From the NCBI RefSeq assembly GCF_963506605.1, contig NC_083277.1, positions 82,088,001 through 82,152,000 on the forward strand: a DNA stretch of 64,000 nt. The letters are read 5' to 3'. The DNA is from Zootoca vivipara (lineage: Eukaryota). Every line of letters begins with the position of its first letter. Within the stretch, counting starts at the first letter, position 1. The notes below the pieces were generated by a model. It worked only from the letters and a program-made list of their open reading frames with translations. It did no database searches and had not been told where the DNA came from. Positions 2,240-61,263 of this stretch are shown piece by piece. Both the position numbers and the translations under genes were made by a program.

Positions 2240-4560
2240 CACAGAGACATTAATCGCCTGCTGTATTTATGGAACCTCCCTACACTGCCATGAAGAAGGT
2301 CAGCTGGCCAGGCATGATATACAACTGAAATCTAGATTGCAGTGTATACTGGGAGAGAACTTTTTACAAAAACCACCACACCCCTTTTCCTGGGCATCTG
2401 TACTTATTGTAAATTTACTTTGGAATTTGAAGTGTTAGAAATATTTTATAAACTTTTTTTGCAATAAATAAGGCATGAGCCAAGGAGCCTGTTCAAGATG
2501 AACTTGCAAGGAACCACTTGAATTACTAGTATGAAGAATCACAAAGTGTACTCTTACTCTTCAAATGTGATAGTCTGAATAGGCCCCAGCAGTGGAGTCA
2601 AGACCTCTGGAAAGTTGGCTGTAAACTTCTGAACATTTACTTTTGTTCTTACTGTGTGTTATTTCACATCTTAACAGACTTTAGTATTTGGTGCAGGTGT
2701 TAGCAGAGCTGTAACCTATTTCTGGAAGCACGTCCACATTCAGCTGTGGTGTTAGATACTGACAGTCCTGTTTGGAGGCAAAGGTTTTCCCTAGAGATGT
2801 TGATAAGGGCAGCGACAGTGAACATGCAATTCTTGATTAATTATGGCAAATCTTTGCTGTTGTGGGAAATGTTTCTTTGATGGCCACGAAGATCATTCTG
2901 TAAAATGCAGGAATCACTGACAATACACAAATGTCTGTGTGCTCGTGATTCTCTAGCTGTAGCCATCCTAAAGGACAGCTATGGCTAAGATAGGGTAGTA
3001 ACTTGTATCCAAAGTCATGTTTCCTTTCTAGTGAAGGAACATATTGCACATTAAATTAGTCCTGACTTGGTTGTGACTAACTTATTCATAACAGCCCGCT
3101 GTTAGATTGGGGTTTTAGAATTTCTAAAGTTAGTTGGTTTACAAGCCCTCTCCAATAAAACAAGTCTTAACTCTTATCTGCAGGTCTTGAGTATTTAACT
3201 GCCAGATGGTTCCACATTTCAATGGATTTCAACCTAGTTTTCCACAGGATTAAAATCTGCTTTTCATATTACCCAGGTATAAAACCTTAACTTGCATTTA
3301 GTTTATTAACAGCGGATCAGGGTTCCCCAGGAAGCTTGATGGGTTAATCAACACAAGTCAAAATGAATGCACAATCTGATATCAAGTTCTTTTAAAACTA
3401 TGACGATGCCATCTATACAAGAGTTAAGTTTTGTATGGCATTAAGATAACCATCTACAGATTAACAAAAGATCTCTCTTTTCCAAAGTTACCCATACCAG
3501 CAAATACAAGCTGAAGTCTTGGCTTCATAATTTCCATGCATGTTGTAATTATACAAGATTTTCCCTTGGCTTTGACAAATTTATATTTTTAAATAGCATT
3601 CTAAACATGGGAAAGATGTATGAGTTAGTATATTACAATGCAATTCTATATTAAATATTTACTAAAAATGTCTGTGAAAACATTTAAAATTTTATTTATA
3701 GAAACAGTTCATAGCACCTTTTTAAGAGGTTCAACTGTACCAGTTTTCTTAAGAAATTAGAGAGGATGTTTAATGGACAACAAGCAATTGCTTTGCAGTA
3801 GTCTTTCTACAATAGTCAAAGCAAAAGAGAAATAAAGTATACTCTACAATTTTCCAGCAAGATTAGAAACTTATTTGGGCAAGGTAAAAGGTACTGCAGC
3901 GAGTCGGTGCAGTGTAGTTAGACAAAAATAAGCATCCTTTTTATTTAAAAGCAGGGTTGGGTGACTTCACTGGAGAAGGTGCACACACCTTAGGAGGTAA
4001 CCATGGCACAAAATGATAGTTTTGACTCAGGAAAATGGTGTTGGCTGTACAAATAAGGGTACATATCTGGATTGATAATGGGTGGAGCCAGTAGTGCCTG
4101 CATAGACAACATCTTACCATACTTTTAGCCTGTGTTCCTATTCCTTCTCCTTCAAGAGCACAACCACTGCCCATTTTACATCCATAACACTGTACAAAGT
4201 GGTAGAGCTACAGGTTGATGGGCAAAATAAAGACAGCAAGGTTGAAAAATGGACAAAATGGCTAGTTGGTACTTACTCATGAAGAATTGAGAAACTACAG
4301 CCACCTTGTTTTTCACTTTGAAATGATTGTCAGGGAAAAATTGTAGTGGTAGAAGTAATGTATTGCTTTTCACCCTTTTGCTTTAGTTGCTTAATATTTA
4401 AGCTTTGCTCCATGTTACCTTTTTGTCTGTTTGCTATGTCACTATGCCTCCTTCATTTGGTAGACTTGAATGAGGAAAAATGATTCAACTTTTAAGGGTC
4501 ACTTGAAATTAATTGTTCAAGAATGTTGTGTACCATCTATTCAATAAAGCCTTGATTTTT
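2240..4560 (+). other. Probable terminal exon/3' UTR of an upstream plus-strand gene (PWWP2A expected by synteny)
   Basis: Pyrimidine tract plus acceptor (tcccccctctccttttcAG, AG at 2238-2239), followed by AT-rich sequence without obvious repeats; AATAAA at 2463-2468 and 4543-4548. In human, PWWP2A lies tail-to-tail with TTC1. The identity is inference only. Confidence 0.35.
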
Positions 4561-5155
4561 TTTCCTGCACTTTTAAAAAAGATAAACAAGCAGTCGGTTT
4601 TATTAATATACTAAAGCTGCAATCCTAGACATACTCACCTGGACATAACTACAGTAGGCCGCCTGTGTAATTACACATAGGATTGCAGGTTGATAAACAG
4701 CTAACACTGCAATCCTATGTGTGATTACAATGCTTCTACTGCTAGCACAAAAGATTGGGACTTCATTTTAGTGTCCCCTGCTTCTGGAATGTTCCTCTAC
4801 AGCCAGTGCTAACTTTTCAGCACTAAATGAAGAATTTATGACTGTTTTTTAAGTTGCCCCCCCCCCCAAGTTTTTAGTATCATGGTGTTTATATCTGCTT
4901 TCTTTATTTCAAACATAGATTTTTAATATGTTTAGTTAACTACCTTGAAAACTCTTGTGAAAGGTGGGTGGAACATTCTGAAATAAAAACAGAACACACA
5001 CTTGTGCTGCAGGATATTTCCAACCGAATAGGCTACAAGGTTTCTTGCTCCCCCTTGCAGCAGGCTCATTCCGTACCAGGTTTGCAAATCTGCTACTTCA
5101 TTAGCAGCTGTAATACTGCCAACAGCTGAACTGTTGTTTATTATATGGAGAATTA

Positions 5156-6492
5156 CCGTGTTTCCCCTTTTTTAATACGTAGTCAGAGAGTAAGCCATGG
5201 CAGCATTTTTTAGCATTAGTGAAACATAAGACACCCCCCGAAAATAAGGCATACCTCCATGCCGTGTAGAACGAGACCGTCGAGCGCCCCAGCCAGCCAG
5301 CGGGACCCAGCCAGCCAGAGGGGCCTGGAACCGGCTGCTGCTGCAGCAGCGAACGCCTGGAGCGCCCGCGCCAGCAGCCTGGCCTCTCTTTTTTTTGCCT
5401 GCCCGAGGCAGCCTGCCGCCCCGCCACCGGAACCGGCGGCTGCAGAGCAGAGCGCTCCGCAGCGCCGGGCAGAGCGCAGCGGCCTGGCCTCTTTATTATT
5501 ATTTATTTGCCGGCCGCCCCGCCATCGGAACCGGCGGCTGCAGAGCGGAGCGCGGCCAGCGGGGAGGGCTGCGCGTTCCCGTGCGGTGATGGCGGTGCGT
5601 GGACGCGCGGCGGTGGTAGCAGCAGCAGCAATGGCTGCTGTGGATCGGCGGCTGCCGAATTTCGATGACTTCACGGGGCAGAGCTGGAGCGCCTGGGTGG
5701 AGAGGGCCGGGCCGACCGCAGCCGAGACAGGTGAGCGCGCCCGCCCTGCCCGCGGGCCCGGAGGTGGCGGCAGGCGGCGGCGGGAAGCAGGGGACCCTCC
5801 GTCGCCGTTTCTGCTGCCGCCGCCGCCGCCATCAAGCTTCCTCCCTCCCTCCCTCGCCTCCCCTCCTCCTCCCTCGCCCCCTCCCTCACCCCGCCCGCCC
5901 CAAACAAAGGAGCCGCCGGGTCCTAGCGCCGCCTCACTTCCCGCCCGATGGATCCTGCCTTCCTTTTCCTGCCGCTTCGATCGGGTTCCCTAGGATCTCT
6001 CGATCCTCCTGATGGGATCCCCTCTCCCCCAGCCTGATTTCACCGGGGGGATGCTGTGATCAAGTCAGGATCTTTGTCCCACGCGTTTTCCAGCTCCTTA
6101 TGTGCTTCTCGTTCCTACTTTGATCCCTTATTACAGGAGCATGGGTTTTTTTTTTACAGGAGCACAGCGGCCTGGCCTCTTTAATTTTTTTTTTTTTGCC
6201 GGCCGCCCCGCCACCGGAACCGGCGGCTGCAGAGCGGAGCGCTCCGCAGCGCCGAGCGCTCGAAACGCCCAGCAGCACCAGGCGGAGCACTGAGCCAGCA
6301 GCCTGCTGCCTTGGTGCTTGGAACCGGCTGCTGCAGCAGCACCGCACAGAGCGCCCAGCAGCACCCCGAGCCAGCTGCCTGGCCCCTCTGAGGAGGCCTT
6401 AAGGTACAAGACATCCCCTGAAAATAAGACACCGTGGGTTTTTTTGAGTAAAAAAAAGAATAAGACGGTGTCTTAAAAAGGGGGAAACACGG
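5156..6492. mobile_element. Non-autonomous Tc1/mariner-superfamily (Tc2/pogo-like termini) DNA transposon carrying a captured gene fragment
   Basis: TA at 5154-5155 and 6493-6494. ~23-bp TIRs: CCGTGTTTCCCCTTTTTTAATAC versus the right-end reverse complement CCGTGTTTCCCCCTTTTTAAGAC. Subterminal AATAAGACACC-type repeats at both ends. No transposase ORF. Confidence 0.85.
5589..5730 (+). pseudogene. ATXN7L2: Captured copy of ATXN7L2 coding exon 1 inside the transposon
   Basis: Translates MAVRGRAAVVAAAAMAAVDRRLPNFDDFTGQSWSAWVERAGPTAAET(G), matching the recalled human ATXN7L2 N-terminus MAVRERAAAAMAALERRVPSLDDFAGQSWSSWVERADLPAADG. Ends at a phase-1 donor (ACAG|gtgagc). No downstream ATXN7L2 exons were recognised in the window. 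Confidence 0.8.
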
Positions 6493-6905
6493 TAAGTATA
6501 GAGCTTCTTTGCTTGCCTTAGGAGCTTGGACATGATTATCTCAAAGTGGTGCTGGGGTATGAACAAGAAAATGATACTGTAAGTACAGCAGATGCAGTGT
6601 CAAGAACTTGTACCAGCTTTTTTATATATTGATATTGCTACAGGTTGTTATATTTTGTCAACTGCCCCTGTTACTGCCCCCTCAAAAAAAACCACCACCA
6701 CCACCACCCAAGCACTAAATGAATAGAATTATCACGTCCTTGATTCATTTACAAAGATAAACACCAACACAATTGCAGCTTTTGATAGCTGCAATTACCC
6801 AGGCTACTTTATACAGTATACTTACATTTATAGGAATTTGAAAAGCATCAATATGTTCCTTTGAATAAGAAAACATCAAAATGCAGACCACAACACCATC
6901 AATGC

Positions 6906-6911
6906 TTTATT
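6906..6911 (-). terminator. Candidate poly(A) signal of TTC1
   Basis: tttatt on plus = AATAAA on minus, ~410 nt downstream of the TTC1 stop. Confidence 0.6.
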
Positions 6912-7322
6912 ACACTTAGCAAAATTGTCCTCTCTCAATAGAAAGGGATCAGCCCTCTCATTTATGCACATATGCTGGAAACTCCACGAACACACAAAAT
7001 GGTTGTACTTTAGTTACAGGTATGGGAACACTGGATTCTTCTATTTAGCAAAGCCAAACACTCCTCCCCCTTCATCACAAGGGAGGATAACGAGTGCCCA
7101 AATAAAGTGCATCTAAGATGGCAGCGGAAGTCAGACCACTTCACTCTATTCACCCACACCTGTAAAAAGTACCTCATAGAAGAGAAATGCATAAGACTAT
7201 GTTCAAATCTTCATACTTAAAGATGTTAGGCCTTAAAAGTTTTAATTCACCCTCTTTCTGCATTCATTGAAACACCACAATTCCAATGCCACACTTTTTA
7301 CCAGGAGTGGGTTGGGCTTATG

Positions 7323-7459
7323 TTATCGGTTGTTGTTATTTGGATTTTGAACAAAGTTGATAGAGTACGAGCCAGTTGAGGAATCCTGTTTCACCTGGAA
7401 GTTCTCTGTTGATAGGCCAAAAGGACGCAGAACCAAGTTGCCCAGATCCTTCAGTTTGC
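7323..7459 (-). CDS. TTC1: Tetratricopeptide repeat protein 1, last coding exon
   Basis: ttgcAG acceptor; encodes (G)[44 protein letters not shown], near-identical to the human TTC1 C-terminus. Confidence 0.95.
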
Positions 7460-8995
7460 CTGCAATACACACACAAAAAGAAATGTACTTCCCAACATGT
7501 ACAAGAAACTACACAAGGTCAGTAATGAAGCAATGTTCCTTGCTGCTTGAACACTGTCCACAATGAGGAGTTTCAAATGAATTGGCTGCAAGCTTTCCAT
7601 TGTTCAAGAGTGTAACACAGGAATGATTCTGTTCTGTACAGCACCTGCCTCATGACACTTGAGCAACAGTAGATGGCCTGTCATTTGGAAAGATGGGCTC
7701 CACGTGCTTGAAACTTTGCTTAGTCCTCTGTCACATGTTAACTACATTAGTGTTAAGCACTGGGCCTATTCAAAGCTTATCTAGTTTGCATGTATGATCA
7801 TTTTGTCTCCAAAAGTAATTAATCTTTGAGAACAGTGCTTTATTTATAGCTAATAAAATAACTTTCAAACTTCCTAAAAAGTTGTAGTAGCCCTAAAAAC
7901 AAAGTGCTGAAACCAAATGGTTTTTAGGCAGAAGTTACAGAGCAAGTAAAAAAAACAAAAACCTAAATACAGCCTGCCTGAAGACCATGAAATATCAACA
8001 TGAAACTAAACACATGGGTAAGAGATAAGAAAGCAAAGTCTGTGCTGGGTAAGCATGCTATGATCCACATAAAAGCTTGTATAAACTTAGAATTAGTTTG
8101 AATGAGCAGCTCTTGTAGATGCAACTTTTGAAGGAACAGCACAAAACATTTGCCTTCTGTCATATTCAAATGCCAGCTTTACTGCTAAAACTGAAAAAGT
8201 AGTTGTATGGCATTTTGGGATTCAATATTATGTTCAGAAATTTGCTGCCTTTCAACTGCTATGCTACAGATACTAAAGCAAATGTTAGCCTCAGCAGTTG
8301 AAATGTAGGACAGACTAATTCATAGTTCTGTCTGCTTTGCCTTTCATTCCAATAAGCATTATCATCTACTACACCCTATTGCCTCTGATCAGAATTTTAG
8401 ATTATAAATCCACATAATTTCAAAGTGAGCATGCAGCATAGTGTGTAAACATTGGTGTTGAGGCACAGCATCTTACTAAAAAGGAGATTGTGACCAGAAC
8501 CACAAGACCAATCAGGTCCAGGTGAGATGCGCAGACTCCTGGGGGCAGGTATTCTTCACTGACTGCCCTTTCTTCTCACCAGCACAAGAGGGAAGGGAGA
8601 TTCTGCACTCAGTATCTTGCTCAGCTACAAGTCTGGCAGAAATGAACCAGTCAACTGTTTCTCTGATTCTGTATGATGGTCACTGTGCAATCCAGAGGGG
8701 TACTCTCTAATTTGAATCTATTGGGAGTTTGCCTCTCAGAATGTGTCTCCCACACACACCATTACCAACAACCTGCATACCTACTGCAACATTCATGAGC
8801 AACTACCACTGCTTCCCCTGTTGGGCTCAATGAGGCCCAATGCAGACACTACCATCGCAAAAATCTGGGGGGGTGGGTGGTAAAATGATGATCCACACAT
8901 AACTACAACACCCACAGATGTCTAGATCAGAATAAATATTTATACCAATGCATGGAAGCTACCACACAAGCAAGCTGGAAACCAATGCCACTTAC

Positions 8996-9050
8996 CCAAC
9001 ATCTCTTCCTTAAGTTTCTCATTGCGTTCTTCTATTTGTCCTGGCAATCG
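8996..9050 (-). CDS. TTC1: TTC1 coding exon 6
   Basis: 55 nt, RLPGQIEERNEKLKEEML(G), AG/GTAAG boundaries. Confidence 0.93.
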
Positions 9051-55749: not shown

Positions 55750-55852
55750 ATGGCTTCCGGTAAAGCTCATATTGGTAAGCCAGTTCCAGACTTCCAGGCC
55801 ACGGCAGTAGTGGATGGAGCCATTAAGGAAATAAAGTTGTCGGACTACAAAG
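55750..55852 (+). CDS. PRDX2: Peroxiredoxin-2, coding exon 1
   Basis: 103 nt, [34 protein letters not shown](G); acceptor ends at 55743. Confidence 0.95.
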
Positions 55853-56168
55853 GTAAGAGACAGTACCACTTTCAGTTGTTTTAAACAACATTTTCAGTGA
55901 GTCTTAATGTCGTAAGGTGCCTTAAGCTCATGAATATGCAGGACATAAATACCCTAGTTAAAGTTTCCTAGACCCACCTTGATAAGAGTGGCTGGGTATG
56001 GATCACTTAAGCGCCAAGAAAGAGGATCTTACATTCTCCGTCAGTTTATCAAGAGGTAATCACAGTCCCCAGGCACTGAATCAGATTGCTGGGGGGATCA
56101 TGGTGTGTAGTGCAAATACTATATTTTGTTAGCAGGCGCAGATAATGGACCATGGGTTTGCCATATCC

Positions 56169-56797
56169 CAGTGATGGGCAACCTTTTGAGCTTGGTGTGT
56201 CAAAATTCGCCAAAAAACCGAGCATAACTCGGGTGGTGTGTCACTTCGAGAAAAAAACCATAATTTCACAATACTGTATTTATAGTTTAAATAACAAAAA
56301 TCTATAATTGTAATATATAACTGTATTTAATAAACCAAAAACTAATTATTTAACCAAACCAAAAACCCCTTATTTATCACAAAGTGCCCAGAGTTGTTGA
56401 GCTTTTTGGGGGTAGCTGCTGACCAAAGTTTTGGAGGTTTTTTTGGGGGGGCGCAAAAGTTGGTTTGCTTTTTTGGAGGGGATGCCCAAAAGCTGCTGCG
56501 CTTTTTGGGGGGGAAAGAGAACAGAAATAAATACGAATAATACCTTCGTTGGAACTAACACGCAGCACCGACATAGTCTGCCAAAGTGCCCAAAAAACCA
56601 GCACAGAACGGGTTAAAAAACCAATCTCTGGCTACCAGCAACAACAACAACAAAAAATGGATCCAGGTTTTAACAGTGGAGACAAGCTGTAGGAGGAGCT
56701 GGAGAACAAAAGGGGGGGCAACAACAACTGCGTGAATGGGCCGATGGGGCGCGTGCCAGCAGTGAGGGCTCTGCGTGTCATAGGTTCACCATCACTG
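56169..56797. mobile_element. 629-bp non-autonomous hAT transposon
   Basis: TIRs CAGTGATGGGCAACCT / CAGTGATGGTGAACCT (reverse complement); perfect 8-bp TSD CCATATCC (56161-56168 and 56798-56805). Confidence 0.9.
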
Positions 56798-56971
56798 CCA
56801 TATCCCAAAGGAAGGATGAATGTTGTTGTGGTCAAGGCATGACATTCATTTTGAGTACATTGTGCTGATGCCTTCAGGTGTTGTCTCCTTCCCTAAACTT
56901 CAGATAGTAGCCAGGCAAGGTTTATGGCTCAAAATATTCTGCTGCTGATGGCTTTTCCCCTCTCTACACAG

Positions 56972-57125
56972 GCAAATATGTGGTTCTCTTCTTCTACCCC
57001 CTGGATTTCACCTTCGTCTGTCCCACAGAGATCATAGCTTTCAGTGATCGAGTTGAGGAGTTCCGCAAGATCAACTGTGAGGTTATTGCTGCCTCTGTTG
57101 ACTCTCAGTTCACCCATTTGGCCTG
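56972..57125 (+). CDS. PRDX2: PRDX2 coding exon 2 (peroxidatic Cys51)
   Basis: 154 nt, [50 protein letters not shown](W). Confidence 0.97.
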
Positions 57126-57895
57126 GTGAGTCTCCTGGTGTTCAGGATCTAGCACAAGGTCTCCATCCATGCTAGAAAGTACTGTGAAGGCTTATGGTTG
57201 TGTTGCCTGCTTAGCTGTAGGAAACTGAGTGACAGGAATAACAGCACATCCCTGTTTTTTGTGTTGCTTGGGAAGAGGGTTAGAATTGACACATCATTAA
57301 GAATGTTCTAGGGATCTGACACTGGGAGGGAGCCAAGCAGAAGTTAACTGACAGAAGGGTGTGGAGGTTCCCCACCAGCCTTATCTAGCCAAACCTGGCT
57401 GCTGTTAGTTTTATCAGCCACCTCAGTAGACTTAACTGCAGTTGTGTTCAGAGTTGATTTGAGCTCCTAAATAGGTGTAAAGAACATTTCACTCTTCTGT
57501 GGGTCAGAGAATCCGACTATATCTAATTGGAGAATATCTCCAGTTTGCCTTCAGAATTAGGTTTCTGGTGAGGAAGAAGATGCTTGCCCAGTTTTTAGAC
57601 CCAGCTTTGGTCTGGGAGCCCCATGTCAAGTTTGGAACAAAAAGCTAGGGACAATCTATTCCATGTGAAATATTTGGTTCAACCATTTCTAAATAGTAAA
57701 TGGCTAGAGTAGTAGCTTGCAGATGTTCAAGATGGGAGGGTGGGAGATATGGGGCCCTCCAGTTGTTGGACTCCCAACTCCCATCAGCCCTTGCCCACCA
57801 TAGCCAATGATTAGGGTTGAGGTGGACATTGGTTCACAGGTTCTCTACCTCTGCTCTAAATGATATTGCAGATGTTAATGGTCATTTCCCTGCAG

Positions 57896-58018
57896 GATCA
57901 ATACAGCAAGAAAGGAAGGGGGCTTGGGATCTGCAAATATTCCGCTTGTGGCAGACATCAACCACAATATTTGCAGGGACTATGGAGTGCTCAAGGAGGA
58001 GGATGGCATTGCATACAG
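57896..58018 (+). CDS. PRDX2: PRDX2 coding exon 3 (GGLG motif)
   Basis: 123 nt, [40 protein letters not shown](R). Confidence 0.96.
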
Positions 58019-58889
58019 GTATGGAGATCTTGAGGTCTAACCTTAATTCTAGGTGACGGTTCAAAGGGCCTGTGGCTGGTGGCATCTTGGCAAATGGCAT
58101 CTTGGCGTTCACTAACAAAGCCTCAACATGGCTGACTCAAGTACCACTTAGCTCCTCTCTCCAGTGCTGCAACATAGGGGTAGCTAACCTGGGAGTCTCC
58201 AGGTGTTACTGAACTAGAGCTGCCAGCTGCAGCCAGCATGGCCAATGGTCAGGAATGATGGAAGCTGCAAAATTCAGCATCTGGAGAACAACAGATTAGT
58301 TCCGCCTGCTCTTAAGTCTTGTGATCTGTTGAAGAGGTTAGTCATCCCTGATGCTGCTGGACTGTTCAATCCTTTGTTCATCAGCTTGGTCCCACCCATC
58401 AAGTCCATGTACGTAATCCAAATGGTAATAACCTGGCTGGAATATAAAAAGCTATTAACACTAGCTAGGTCCTAGAACCCTGGGCCTTGGATGTATGGAC
58501 TTGGACTTCAGAGAATTAGTAGCTGTAGCTGGAACTTAAATTGAGTCTGTCTCTGCTTTTGCCCCAACCTCTTTTAGTTGATCTCTCTTAATTTGGAGTA
58601 AGGTATCTGCATAGGCATAGATTCAGAATTCCCCCACACTTAACTTTGACCCTGGTACTGCTGATGAAGGCAGTAAAAGCGCCACATAGATTCCAGGAGC
58701 TTCCAATACTGGGTAGAATTCCCCTTGTTTGCTCTTGTCCTGTCTCTCTACTAAGGCTACATACACACCATACCTTTTAAAGCACCTTCTCCAAAGAACC
58801 CTGGCAATTGTAGCTTGCCCCTCACCGAACTACAGTTCCTTGTACCATTAAACTATAGTTCCCAGGATTCTTTGGGGGAAGGCATGTGC

Positions 58890-59395
58890 ATCTTAGGCTT
58901 CATATATATTGTAAATGGTTCCCATTCTCTTTTAAAGTCTTCATTGTCCTTTTCATGTAGTTTATCTGTTAGTTTTGCCAGTTCTGCATATTCCATAAGT
59001 TTTCCTTGCATTGTTCTTTTATTGGTATTTCTTCTGTCTTCCAAGCTTGTGCTAATATAATTCTTGCTGCTGTTGTCGCATACATAATTTCCAGTTTTCC
59101 TTTTTTTATATCTTGATCTAAAATTCCTAGGAGGAATGCTTCTGGTTTTTTTTTTAACAAAAGTCTTTTTAAACATTTTACAATTCATTATATATCATTT
59201 CCCAATAATTTCTAATCTTTTTGCATTCCCACCACATATGATAAAATGTGCCGTCTTTTTCTTTACATTTCCAACAAGTTTTTGATCCCTTTTTTAAAAT
59301 ACATTTTAGCTACTTTCTCTGGTGTAATATACCATCTATATATAATTTTCATGTAATTCTCTTTCAATAAGATACAATCTGTAAATTTTATATGA
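58890..59395 (-). mobile_element. L1/Tx1-clade LINE ORF2 C-terminal fragment
   Basis: Minus strand reads CWKCKEKDGTFYHMWWECKK...KPEAFLLGIL...YATTAARIILAQAWK; same type as 53195-53520. Confidence 0.75.
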
Positions 59396-59452
59396 AGAGA
59401 CAACATAAAGAACTGGACTCATTGGCAGGATTTGAGTAAACAATCACAATTG

Positions 59453-59456
<4 letters not shown>

Positions 59457-59503
<47 letters not shown>
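59457..59503. repeat. (AAT)n microsatellite
   Basis: Directly visible. Confidence 0.95.
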
Positions 59504-59508
<5 letters not shown>

Positions 59509-59811
59509 GATTATTGGGAAATTTTGGGGGAAACAATACGCAGGGTGAACAATATGTAAATAAAACAAAATGGGAGTATGAGGGAAGTCCAGGGGAGGGG
59601 ATAGGAAAATACGGAAAACTGTAAGAAAAATATTGTTAGAGGATGTATATACGGAAAAAACCAATAAAAATATTTTTTAAAATAAGTGCATCTTAGGCTG
59701 TGTACACACACCGTACAAGCTTGAATCCTCTCATTTATATGTGTGTGTGTATGCACGCACGCACACACTCTTAATTGCCCTTCTTTCTCCCCCCTCCCCA
59801 CAACTCTCCAG

Positions 59812-59942
59812 AGGCCTGTTCATAATTGATGACAAAGGCATCCTGCGTCAGATCACAGTGAATGACCTACCTGTGGGGCGTTCTGTGGATGAGACACTTC
59901 GCCTGGTACAGGCTTTCCAGTTCACAGACCAGCATGGTGAAG
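59812..59942 (+). CDS. PRDX2: PRDX2 coding exon 4
   Basis: 131 nt, [43 protein letters not shown]. Confidence 0.97.
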
Positions 59943-60710
59943 GTAAGGGGTGGGGATTGGGATAATGGAGCTAACACAGAAGGGTGGTTCCAGTATTGCT
60001 TTAGCAATTGTGGCTGTTACCTCTTTGTGGGCCAAGGAAGGGCCTATCTCTGCCCATGGACAGTGCATAACAGCTTCCAAAACACCTTTGTAGCAAATGG
60101 TGTCCTATATGAAGTTGGGAGGATGTACTGCTAGCAACATTTCTTAGAGCCTTCCTTGGCGCAGTTCATGCCATATCCTGTCATGCCCACCATCTTCAGC
60201 ATCACAGAAGTGTGGCCTGGTGCAAAGTAGACCCAAGACAACCTCATGCAGCTCTTAATAACGCAAGAGCCCTGCTGGTTCAGTCCATTTGCCCATCTAG
60301 TCCGGCATCCTGTTCCCACAGTGGCCAGCCAGATGCCCATGGGAAGGCTGCAAGCACTCACTTCACTTGTGAGTCCCAGAAAGTGGTACGTGGAGATATA
60401 CTGCCTCCAGCATAGCCATATAGGGAAGCTTTTAATGTTTAACAGACCATTGTATTTTAATATTTTGTTGGAGGCCGCCCAGAGTGGCTGGGGAAACCCA
60501 GCCAGATGGGCGGGGTATAAATAAATTATTATTTATTAGCCAGTGACAGCTGTCCTCCTGAACATATGCAAACACACTAGTCTCCTGTTATGGACCATGA
60601 AACCCCAAAAGGAGCATACTGGGATGGGAGAAGCTGTAGCATTTCCCCCCCTCTCCTGTGCCTTTTCTTTTTAAAAGAAAAACGGTGTGCGTATTCACTA
60701 TGTTGTTACA

Positions 60711-60898
60711 AAATTTAAAAATTCCTTCAGTAGCACCTTAAAGACCAACTAAGTTTTCTTCAGTGTATCTGAAGAAGTGTGCATGCACACGAAAGCTCAT
60801 ACCAAAATAAAAACTCAGTTGGTCTTTAAGGTGCTACTGAAGGAATTTTTAAATTTTGTTTCGACTCAGACCAACACGGCTACCTACCTGTAACTAGA
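60711..60898 (+). mobile_element. Short Penelope-like element insertion with inverted arms
   Basis: Inverted repeat acaaaatttaaaaattccttcagtagcaccttaaagaccaact / agttggtctttaaggtgctactgaaggaatttttaaattttgt; 14-bp direct repeat ACTATGTTGTTACA at 60697-60710 and 60899-60912; contains a hammerhead motif typical of Penelope pLTRs. Confidence 0.7.
60765..60802 (+). ncRNA. Minimal type I hammerhead ribozyme motif
   Basis: GUAU-CUGAAGA-A-GUGUGC.AU.GCACAC-GAAA-GC-UC^AUAC: stem I GUAU/AUAC, self-complementary stem II, conserved core boxes, 1-bp palindromic (AGCU) helix III. Confidence 0.7.
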
Positions 60899-61177
60899 AC
60901 TATGTTGTTACAGTAAGTGCCACTTTTAACATTTGGAAGAAAATGTGCTGGTACTGCATACCCTTGAGTATCTCCAGGAAAAAAAGGCACTGCTCCAATC
61001 TAGATTGTGCTTGTTGGTGGAGTAAGTTCTGACTTTTTAATATGTGATGTCTCCAAAGCTTCCTTCTACTGCTTCTGGGGGTACCTTGTAGCCCTAAGCT
61101 TGCTCCATGTGGACCCTATGTGCTTTGAGTGCTGTTTGACATATTCTAACCCCACACTTCTGTACATTTTGCTACAG

Positions 61178-61263
61178 TGTGCCCAGCTGGCTGGCAACCT
61201 GGCGGCGACACCATCAAGCCCACAGTGAAGGACAGCAAGGCCTTCTTCGCCAAGCAGCAGTAG
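61178..61263 (+). CDS. PRDX2: PRDX2 last coding exon (resolving Cys172)
   Basis: (V)[27 protein letters not shown]; total CDS 597 nt = 198 aa, as in human PRDX2. Confidence 0.96.

Follow-up and report, generated by a model that had tools for sequence, protein, structure and literature searches.

The PRDX2 Locus and Its Last Intron

The window, by which we mean the whole 64,000-nucleotide stretch of DNA that was analyzed, carries on its forward strand the five coding exons of PRDX2, which total 198 codons plus the stop. The gene was named from its first coding exon, which matched PRDX2 with an E value of 3e-13 and PRDX1 with one of 8e-7; PRDX1 and PRDX2 were not told apart by exon 3 by itself. 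An exon of the RNase HII family lies head-to-head with PRDX2 (window 47026-47178, minus strand) and, judged by its sequence, probably belongs to RNASEH2A. Linkage of PRDX2 and RNASEH2A is known from the human genome. The last intron of PRDX2 hosts an insertion of a Penelope-like element (PLE) that contains a minimal hammerhead motif, and the features are as follows, with the evidence in brackets.

55750-852, 56972-57125, 57896-58018, 59812-942 and 61178-263 (span 55750..61263), plus strand: PRDX2 coding exons (sequence matches)
59943..61177, plus strand: last PRDX2 intron, GT..AG, host of the insertion (spliced reads)
60697..60710, plus strand: left copy of the 14-bp target-site duplication (repeat search, 100% identical)
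60708..60757, minus strand: inverted arm, 50 nt, a tail-less copy of 60810-60859 (repeat search, alignment)
60711..60898, no strand assigned: PLE insertion, 188 bp, between the two target-duplication copies (repeat search, alignment)
60756..60763, plus strand: junction bases complementary to the core at 60769-76, with predicted core sequestration (fold)
60762..60904, plus strand: direct arm, the 3' part of a pLTR running from an Inr-like site, across the tail, as far as the ATG of the ORF at 60902-04 (alignment)
60765..60802, plus strand (PRDX2 sense): minimal type I hammerhead motif, predicted cut after 60798 (sequence, descriptor with shuffles, fold)
60899..60912, plus strand: right copy of the 14-bp target-site duplication (repeat search)

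Another, unrelated high-copy repeat ends in this intron with a tail of (ATT)n (window 60432-60553); it is abundant in RNA and DNA. An (AAT)n run is found near 59455-59505.

The Hammerhead Motif

The motif consists of GTAT (60765-68), CTGAAGA (60769-75), an extra A (60776), GTGTGC-AT-GCACAC (60777-90), GAAA (60791-94), G-C-T-C (60795-98), and ATAC (60799-802), and inspection of the sequence confirmed the preliminary description of this DNA, which had placed these elements on the sense strand of the last PRDX2 intron. The core CUGANGA...GAAA...UH of the minimal PLE hammerheads is present, A60776 is the additional nucleotide lying between position 9 and position 10.1, and G60777-C60790 forms the G10.1-C11.1 pair. 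Stem I has 4 bp, as in a short helix I of 4-5 bp with open ends, and helix III is a single base pair within a palindromic AGCU (60794-97). The core, the stems, and the cut triplet are all intact in the PRDX2-intron copy. The pairing of GUGUGC with GCACAC given earlier for stem II held, but not its extent, since a 2-nt loop cannot close; the stem is predicted to comprise 5 bp capped by a CAUG loop. The complete segment 60777-60790 is also a perfect 14-nt palindrome, with a predicted intermolecular duplex of -25.2 kcal/mol, and it may compete with dimers or nucleate them.

When the full minimal-hammerhead descriptor (stem I, core, stem II, and cut triplet) was applied, one site was found in the 64-kb window and none in any of 200 dinucleotide shuffles, while the bare core pattern was not above chance in the window (8 matches vs a shuffle mean of 5.7). 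The covariance-model search that had been proposed as a check turned out negative: Rfam gave no match on the window at gathering thresholds, and at E values up to 10 it returned miRNA-type chance matches driven by the hairpin and no hammerhead.

Anatomy of the Insertion

The stub shows the hallmarks of insertion by EN+ PLEs, namely an inverted truncated copy, a one-sided tail, and a target duplication. Inverted truncated copies and one-sided tails of 30-40 bp, as reported for PLE insertions (PMC8557442, PMC3846280), equal the anatomy seen here. The direct arm is identical to an intact parent element at 137 of 143 positions (96%), and its last 6 nt lie within the target duplication too. The inverted arms, which are common among copies of the family, pair perfectly save for one mismatch, and a 50-bp hairpin is predicted in the pre-mRNA, the fold of 60700-60910 being calculated at -93 kcal/mol. 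Element and target share bases at both junctions, 6 nt at 60899-60904 and 3 nt at 60708-60710, which suggests, from sequence alone, microhomology-assisted priming. In one DNA run, a contig spanned the right junction, but it included just 20 bases of the element, which is not enough for it to be counted.

The Parent Element and Its Family

Across the 1.44-Gb genome, the 34-nt motif is matched exactly 19,097 times, in balance on the two strands, against none for the reversed control, in line with the many genomic copies foreseen in the preliminary description; a looser pattern gave 22,820 matches and a 27-mer from downstream of the motif gave 20,124. Walking upstream in the copies led to a frame encoding RT and GIY-YIG, and then to an intact, full-length element (L045, 1473-4810; G000:C14) with two near-identical pLTRs, one hammerhead in each (at 1673 and 4677), an ATG at 1806, and an ORF of 901 aa. 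The occurrence of the motif in both pLTRs, together with the features of the core and helices given above, identifies it as what it had been taken for, a minimal type I hammerhead of the PLE kind whose helix III is palindromic. The parent ORF (L038/L045) contains RVT_1 and GIY-YIG domains scoring above the Pfam cut-offs and begins 104 nt downstream of the hammerhead cut site; the PRDX2-intron copy itself is without an ORF. The linker of the parent ORF reads CX4CxxC at residues 761-769, and a CX2-5CxxC linker between RT and EN is reported to mark Neptune and Nematis and not Penelope/Poseidon (PMC8557442). The family looks recently active.

A derived array was also found (L032; G000:C1:2776500-2781000), in which tandem units of 598 nt carry hammerheads at 1326, 1924, 2522, and 3120, each unit linking the pLTR and first ORF codons with the terminal part of the GIY-YIG region. 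The array is an internally deleted, retrozyme-like derivative, in which dimers could form in cis. The ends of reads diverging behind 60805 correspond to a related subfamily that has the same hammerhead and differs just downstream. The looser pattern was also tried as a means of finding other hammerhead families, and 100 of 100 among the matches listed belonged to the same family. Our literature search found no paper on this PLE family or on the PRDX2-intron locus; subscription journals and Repbase lay outside the search, so the family may already be catalogued.

Copy Ends and the Origin of Stubs

To define the copy ends, we took the downstream anchor and used 99 of its first 100 listed places, from the first 3.3 Mb of contig C1 and with the tandem array among them; the anchor lies downstream of the motif, so the sample was not picked for the presence of a hammerhead. 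Its members are not all independent, since some are arms of the same insertion and four are units of the same array. Ends were read from gapped alignments, as ungapped ones gave indel artefacts. The 3' ends of 93 of the 99 arms fell into two clusters about 37 nt apart, with 45 at 60851-62 and 48 at 60889-901. Two internal RT start sites that give rise to the tail are described for an anole element (PMC11167929).

The 5' ends were distributed differently. No copy out of 99 began 2 nt or less from the cut site (60797-801), which is an absence of pile-up and not a depletion, as the background expectation is just 0.6 ends. Four copies began elsewhere in 60783-816, 7 in 60700-755, 17 in 60570-699, and 34 beyond the reference, while 37 began at 60756-782, that is, 17-43 nt upstream of the cut site and with a sharp edge near 60761. 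This 27-nt zone, although chosen post hoc, holds about 11-fold more 5' ends per base (37 of the 65 in range, binomial p 2e-19). Long copies show an Inr-like motif at this edge and, about 30 nt ahead of it, a TATA-like box, and the same layout is noted for rotifer pLTRs (PMC3846280).

Since the 5' ends cluster at a TATA/Inr-like start and none lies at the cut, the insertion templates were likely uncut, and we infer that the stubs represent cDNAs copied from the element transcript's uncut 5' end. Alternatively, the cluster could reflect stalling of RT at hairpins instead of the transcript end; under either reading, cleavage does not set the end of the template. If the transcript-end reading holds, RT would prime at the nicked target on the 6 shared bases, start internally on the RNA, at either of the two tail sites, and read through the uncut hammerhead up to the transcript's 5' end at the Inr-like site; the other junction would be closed by a second cDNA in inverted orientation. 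For a Neptune-type element, the 5'-end pattern thus lends support to the in vitro result of PLE insertion from uncut RNA, and it places the hammerhead within 40 nt of the 5' end of the element transcript.

Sequence Change among Copies

Variation within the motif was scored in 79 arms carrying it ungapped, after the other 20 of the 99, which were truncated or gapped, had been left out. G12 was mutated in 4 of the 79 and C11.1, a CpG position, in 3 of the 79, with no compensatory pairs; the commonest core variant was at the unconstrained N7 (14/79). Among the first 100 of the 22,820 loose matches, 12 varied in stem II or its loop, comprising 7 loop changes, 2 wobbles, and 3 broken pairs, again without a compensatory change. 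Covariation of stems I and II among the copies, the lack of which had been named in the preliminary description as one half of a refuting outcome, was accordingly absent, with 0 compensatory changes, although within one young family little covariation is to be expected. A T60780A variant seen in RNA was considered as a covarying subfamily and rejected, all 18 of its 18 copies being uncompensated. As judged from these sequences, the changes fit constraint on the source elements and neutral decay of the dispersed copies.

Predicted Folding and Dimerization

Folding was computed by nearest-neighbour prediction, which has no tertiary contacts. In the isolated 38-mer, stem I was predicted with a probability of 0.64-0.73 and stem II with one of about 0.98. 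With at least 14 upstream bases included, the predicted probability of stem I fell to 0.0 in 5/5 settings, and the calculated unpaired probability was at most 0.01 at six of the seven core positions. In native pLTR contexts, stem I had a predicted probability of 0.00-0.15 in 11 of 12 settings and of 0.8 in the remaining one; as these contexts are thus mostly predicted to misfold too, the fold model separates active from inactive motifs poorly.

For two molecules, the active dimer through helix III was calculated at -11.1 kcal/mol, compared with -13.6 kcal/mol for two monomers and -30.6 kcal/mol for an inactive dimer. The latter would form through the stem II palindrome, which is predicted to be favoured by about 19 kcal/mol and to leave helix III unsupported. 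The search of the 64-kb window with the full descriptor found no second motif, so that the PRDX2-intron copy is without a neighbouring partner. Dimer cleavage is reportedly described by Lunse et al. 2017, as relayed in a review. In the experiments reported in PMC4209133, single minimal hammerheads gave no cleavage and dimers gave low cleavage, and the account of the anole hammerhead in PMC11167929 is that it cleaved only with the element's protein and that cleavage was not required for insertion.

Evidence from RNA Reads

About 6% of each of three RNA runs was read, from donors that need not carry the insertion, and the last exon-exon joint of PRDX2 was normal, with 163, 2, and 29 junction reads. 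Unique bins of the last intron were essentially empty in all three runs. Reads of all copies of the family covered the motif to a depth of hundreds to about 1,600, and no pile-up of read beginnings or ends (at least one fifth of the depth) was observed at 60798/60799 in 3/3 RNA runs. The missing pile-up is weak evidence against cutting, because cut pre-mRNA could be degraded unseen. An A>G difference at 60741 in the RNA reads was considered as editing and discarded, as it mirrors a C/T difference at 60816 and also occurs in DNA contigs; the three RNA runs contained no locus-specific intronic reads that could show editing.

Discussion

The motif in the last PRDX2 intron is an ordinary stub of a known retroelement motif. 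We consider it to be the pLTR hammerhead of an abundant PLE with a Neptune-type linker, lying in a 188-bp truncated insertion and likely an inert passenger, a reading to which we give a probability of about 0.88. In the pre-mRNA, the junction bases would pair with the core and the arms would close a long hairpin, so that folding of the motif would be rare, and splicing would remove the intron ahead of any cut. The parent's hammerhead is probably active only within tandem transcripts or together with the element's protein.

The preliminary description had proposed a potentially self-cleaving RNA about 380 nt before the final exon of PRDX2. The distance, measured at 379 nt from the predicted cut, was accurate; cutting of the pre-mRNA is spoken against by the predicted sequestration of the core and the lack of read ends piling up at 60798/60799. 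A weaker form of that proposal, in which the stub is a mildly harmful passenger and some nascent PRDX2 RNA is cut with the help of the element's protein or a chaperone, as in the germ line, slightly lowering the output of the allele, gains from the intact core, from the anole PAc hammerhead, which is reported to cleave with protein (PMC11167929), and from a family with intact parent ORFs and considerable RNA depth over the motif. With the core predicted to be sequestered, just 379 nt left to the splice acceptor, and normal junction reads with no end pile-up, we nevertheless regard it as unlikely. The insertion could instead matter as a 50-bp double-stranded hairpin, through editing, as a source of small RNA, or as a modifier of splicing, and not as a ribozyme. 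The near-perfect arms and the stable predicted fold would suit such a role, but PLE insertion yields inverted arms as a by-product, common among the copies, and no locus-specific intronic reads showing editing were seen in the three RNA runs, which makes it very improbable in our estimate.

The further suggestion that dispersed copies dimerise in trans via helix III and constitute a genome-wide RNA-processing system draws on some 20,000 near-identical copies and on the self-complementary AGCU and 14-nt stem II, which would offer a handle for their meeting. The predictions run the other way, two monomers being more stable than the active dimer, and the inactive one being favoured by the palindrome in stem II; the family-wide reads do not pile up at the cut, and the copies decay uncompensated. 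Tandem dimers, moreover, are reported to cleave poorly in vitro (PMC4209133), and related retrozymes are described as depleted from Xenopus introns (bioRxiv 10.64898/2026.07.22.740005). We can give this suggestion hardly any credence. It would be a long shot, too, that the roughly 20,000 stubs render the nascent transcriptome latently cleavable, with a Penelope protein triggering sense intronic copies, that of PRDX2 included, to cut host pre-mRNAs and knock down many genes. As an inert passenger, the stub as found would have little consequence for PRDX2, and its value, at the level of the family, is modest: a young family this large is a good natural test set, in its sense vs antisense intronic copies, for whether PLE hammerheads cut host RNA at all.

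Comparison with Known Systems

Conserved intronic ribozymes, such as the amniote hammerheads and CPEB3, are single-copy and conserved. The present motif resembles the amniote intronic hammerheads and the mammalian HDV-like CPEB3 ribozyme, as they are reported (PMC6765202, PMC10919898), in being a self-cleaving motif in sense orientation within an intron, but it is minimal, lacks a stable helix III, and belongs to a set of about 20,000 recent mobile copies. The single or low copy number and the stable monomer fold of a domesticated hammerhead are thus both lacking. With the non-LTR retrozymes outlined in bioRxiv 10.64898/2026.07.22.740005, the stub shares the character of a non-coding, PLE-derived unit with a type I hammerhead; unlike them, it is a monomer with an inverted arm and not a tandem array, the 64-kb window holding one motif and not the at least two tandem hammerhead units of a retrozyme.

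The element PAc (Poseidon) of Anolis carolinensis (Frangieh et al. 2024, PMC11167929) is likewise a squamate PLE with two RT start sites that yield a tail, and it is reported there to use uncut RNA as the insertion template, with no RNA-seq ends at the cut in the data that the report presents. It differs from the present parent, which has a Neptune/Nematis-type linker and whose ORF starts 104 nt past the cut, whereas the PAc ORF is said to start inside the hammerhead (PMC11167929).

The closest likeness is to the minimal hammerheads of metazoan PLEs, which are described as type I, with a 4-bp helix I, an extra base between 9 and 10.1, a G10.1-C11.1 pair, and a palindromic helix III, and as residing in pLTRs, mostly in single dispersed copies (Cervera and De la Pena 2014, PMC4209133). 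Such motifs are reported from Neptune elements of fish and from turtle and snakes (PMC4209133). Helix II is here 5 bp and wholly palindromic, in contrast to the 7-8 bp given for Schistosoma, and the family is very uniform where those of that report are variable (PMC4209133). Its copy number also exceeds the 4,000-9,000 given for coelacanth and Xenopus (PMC4209133).
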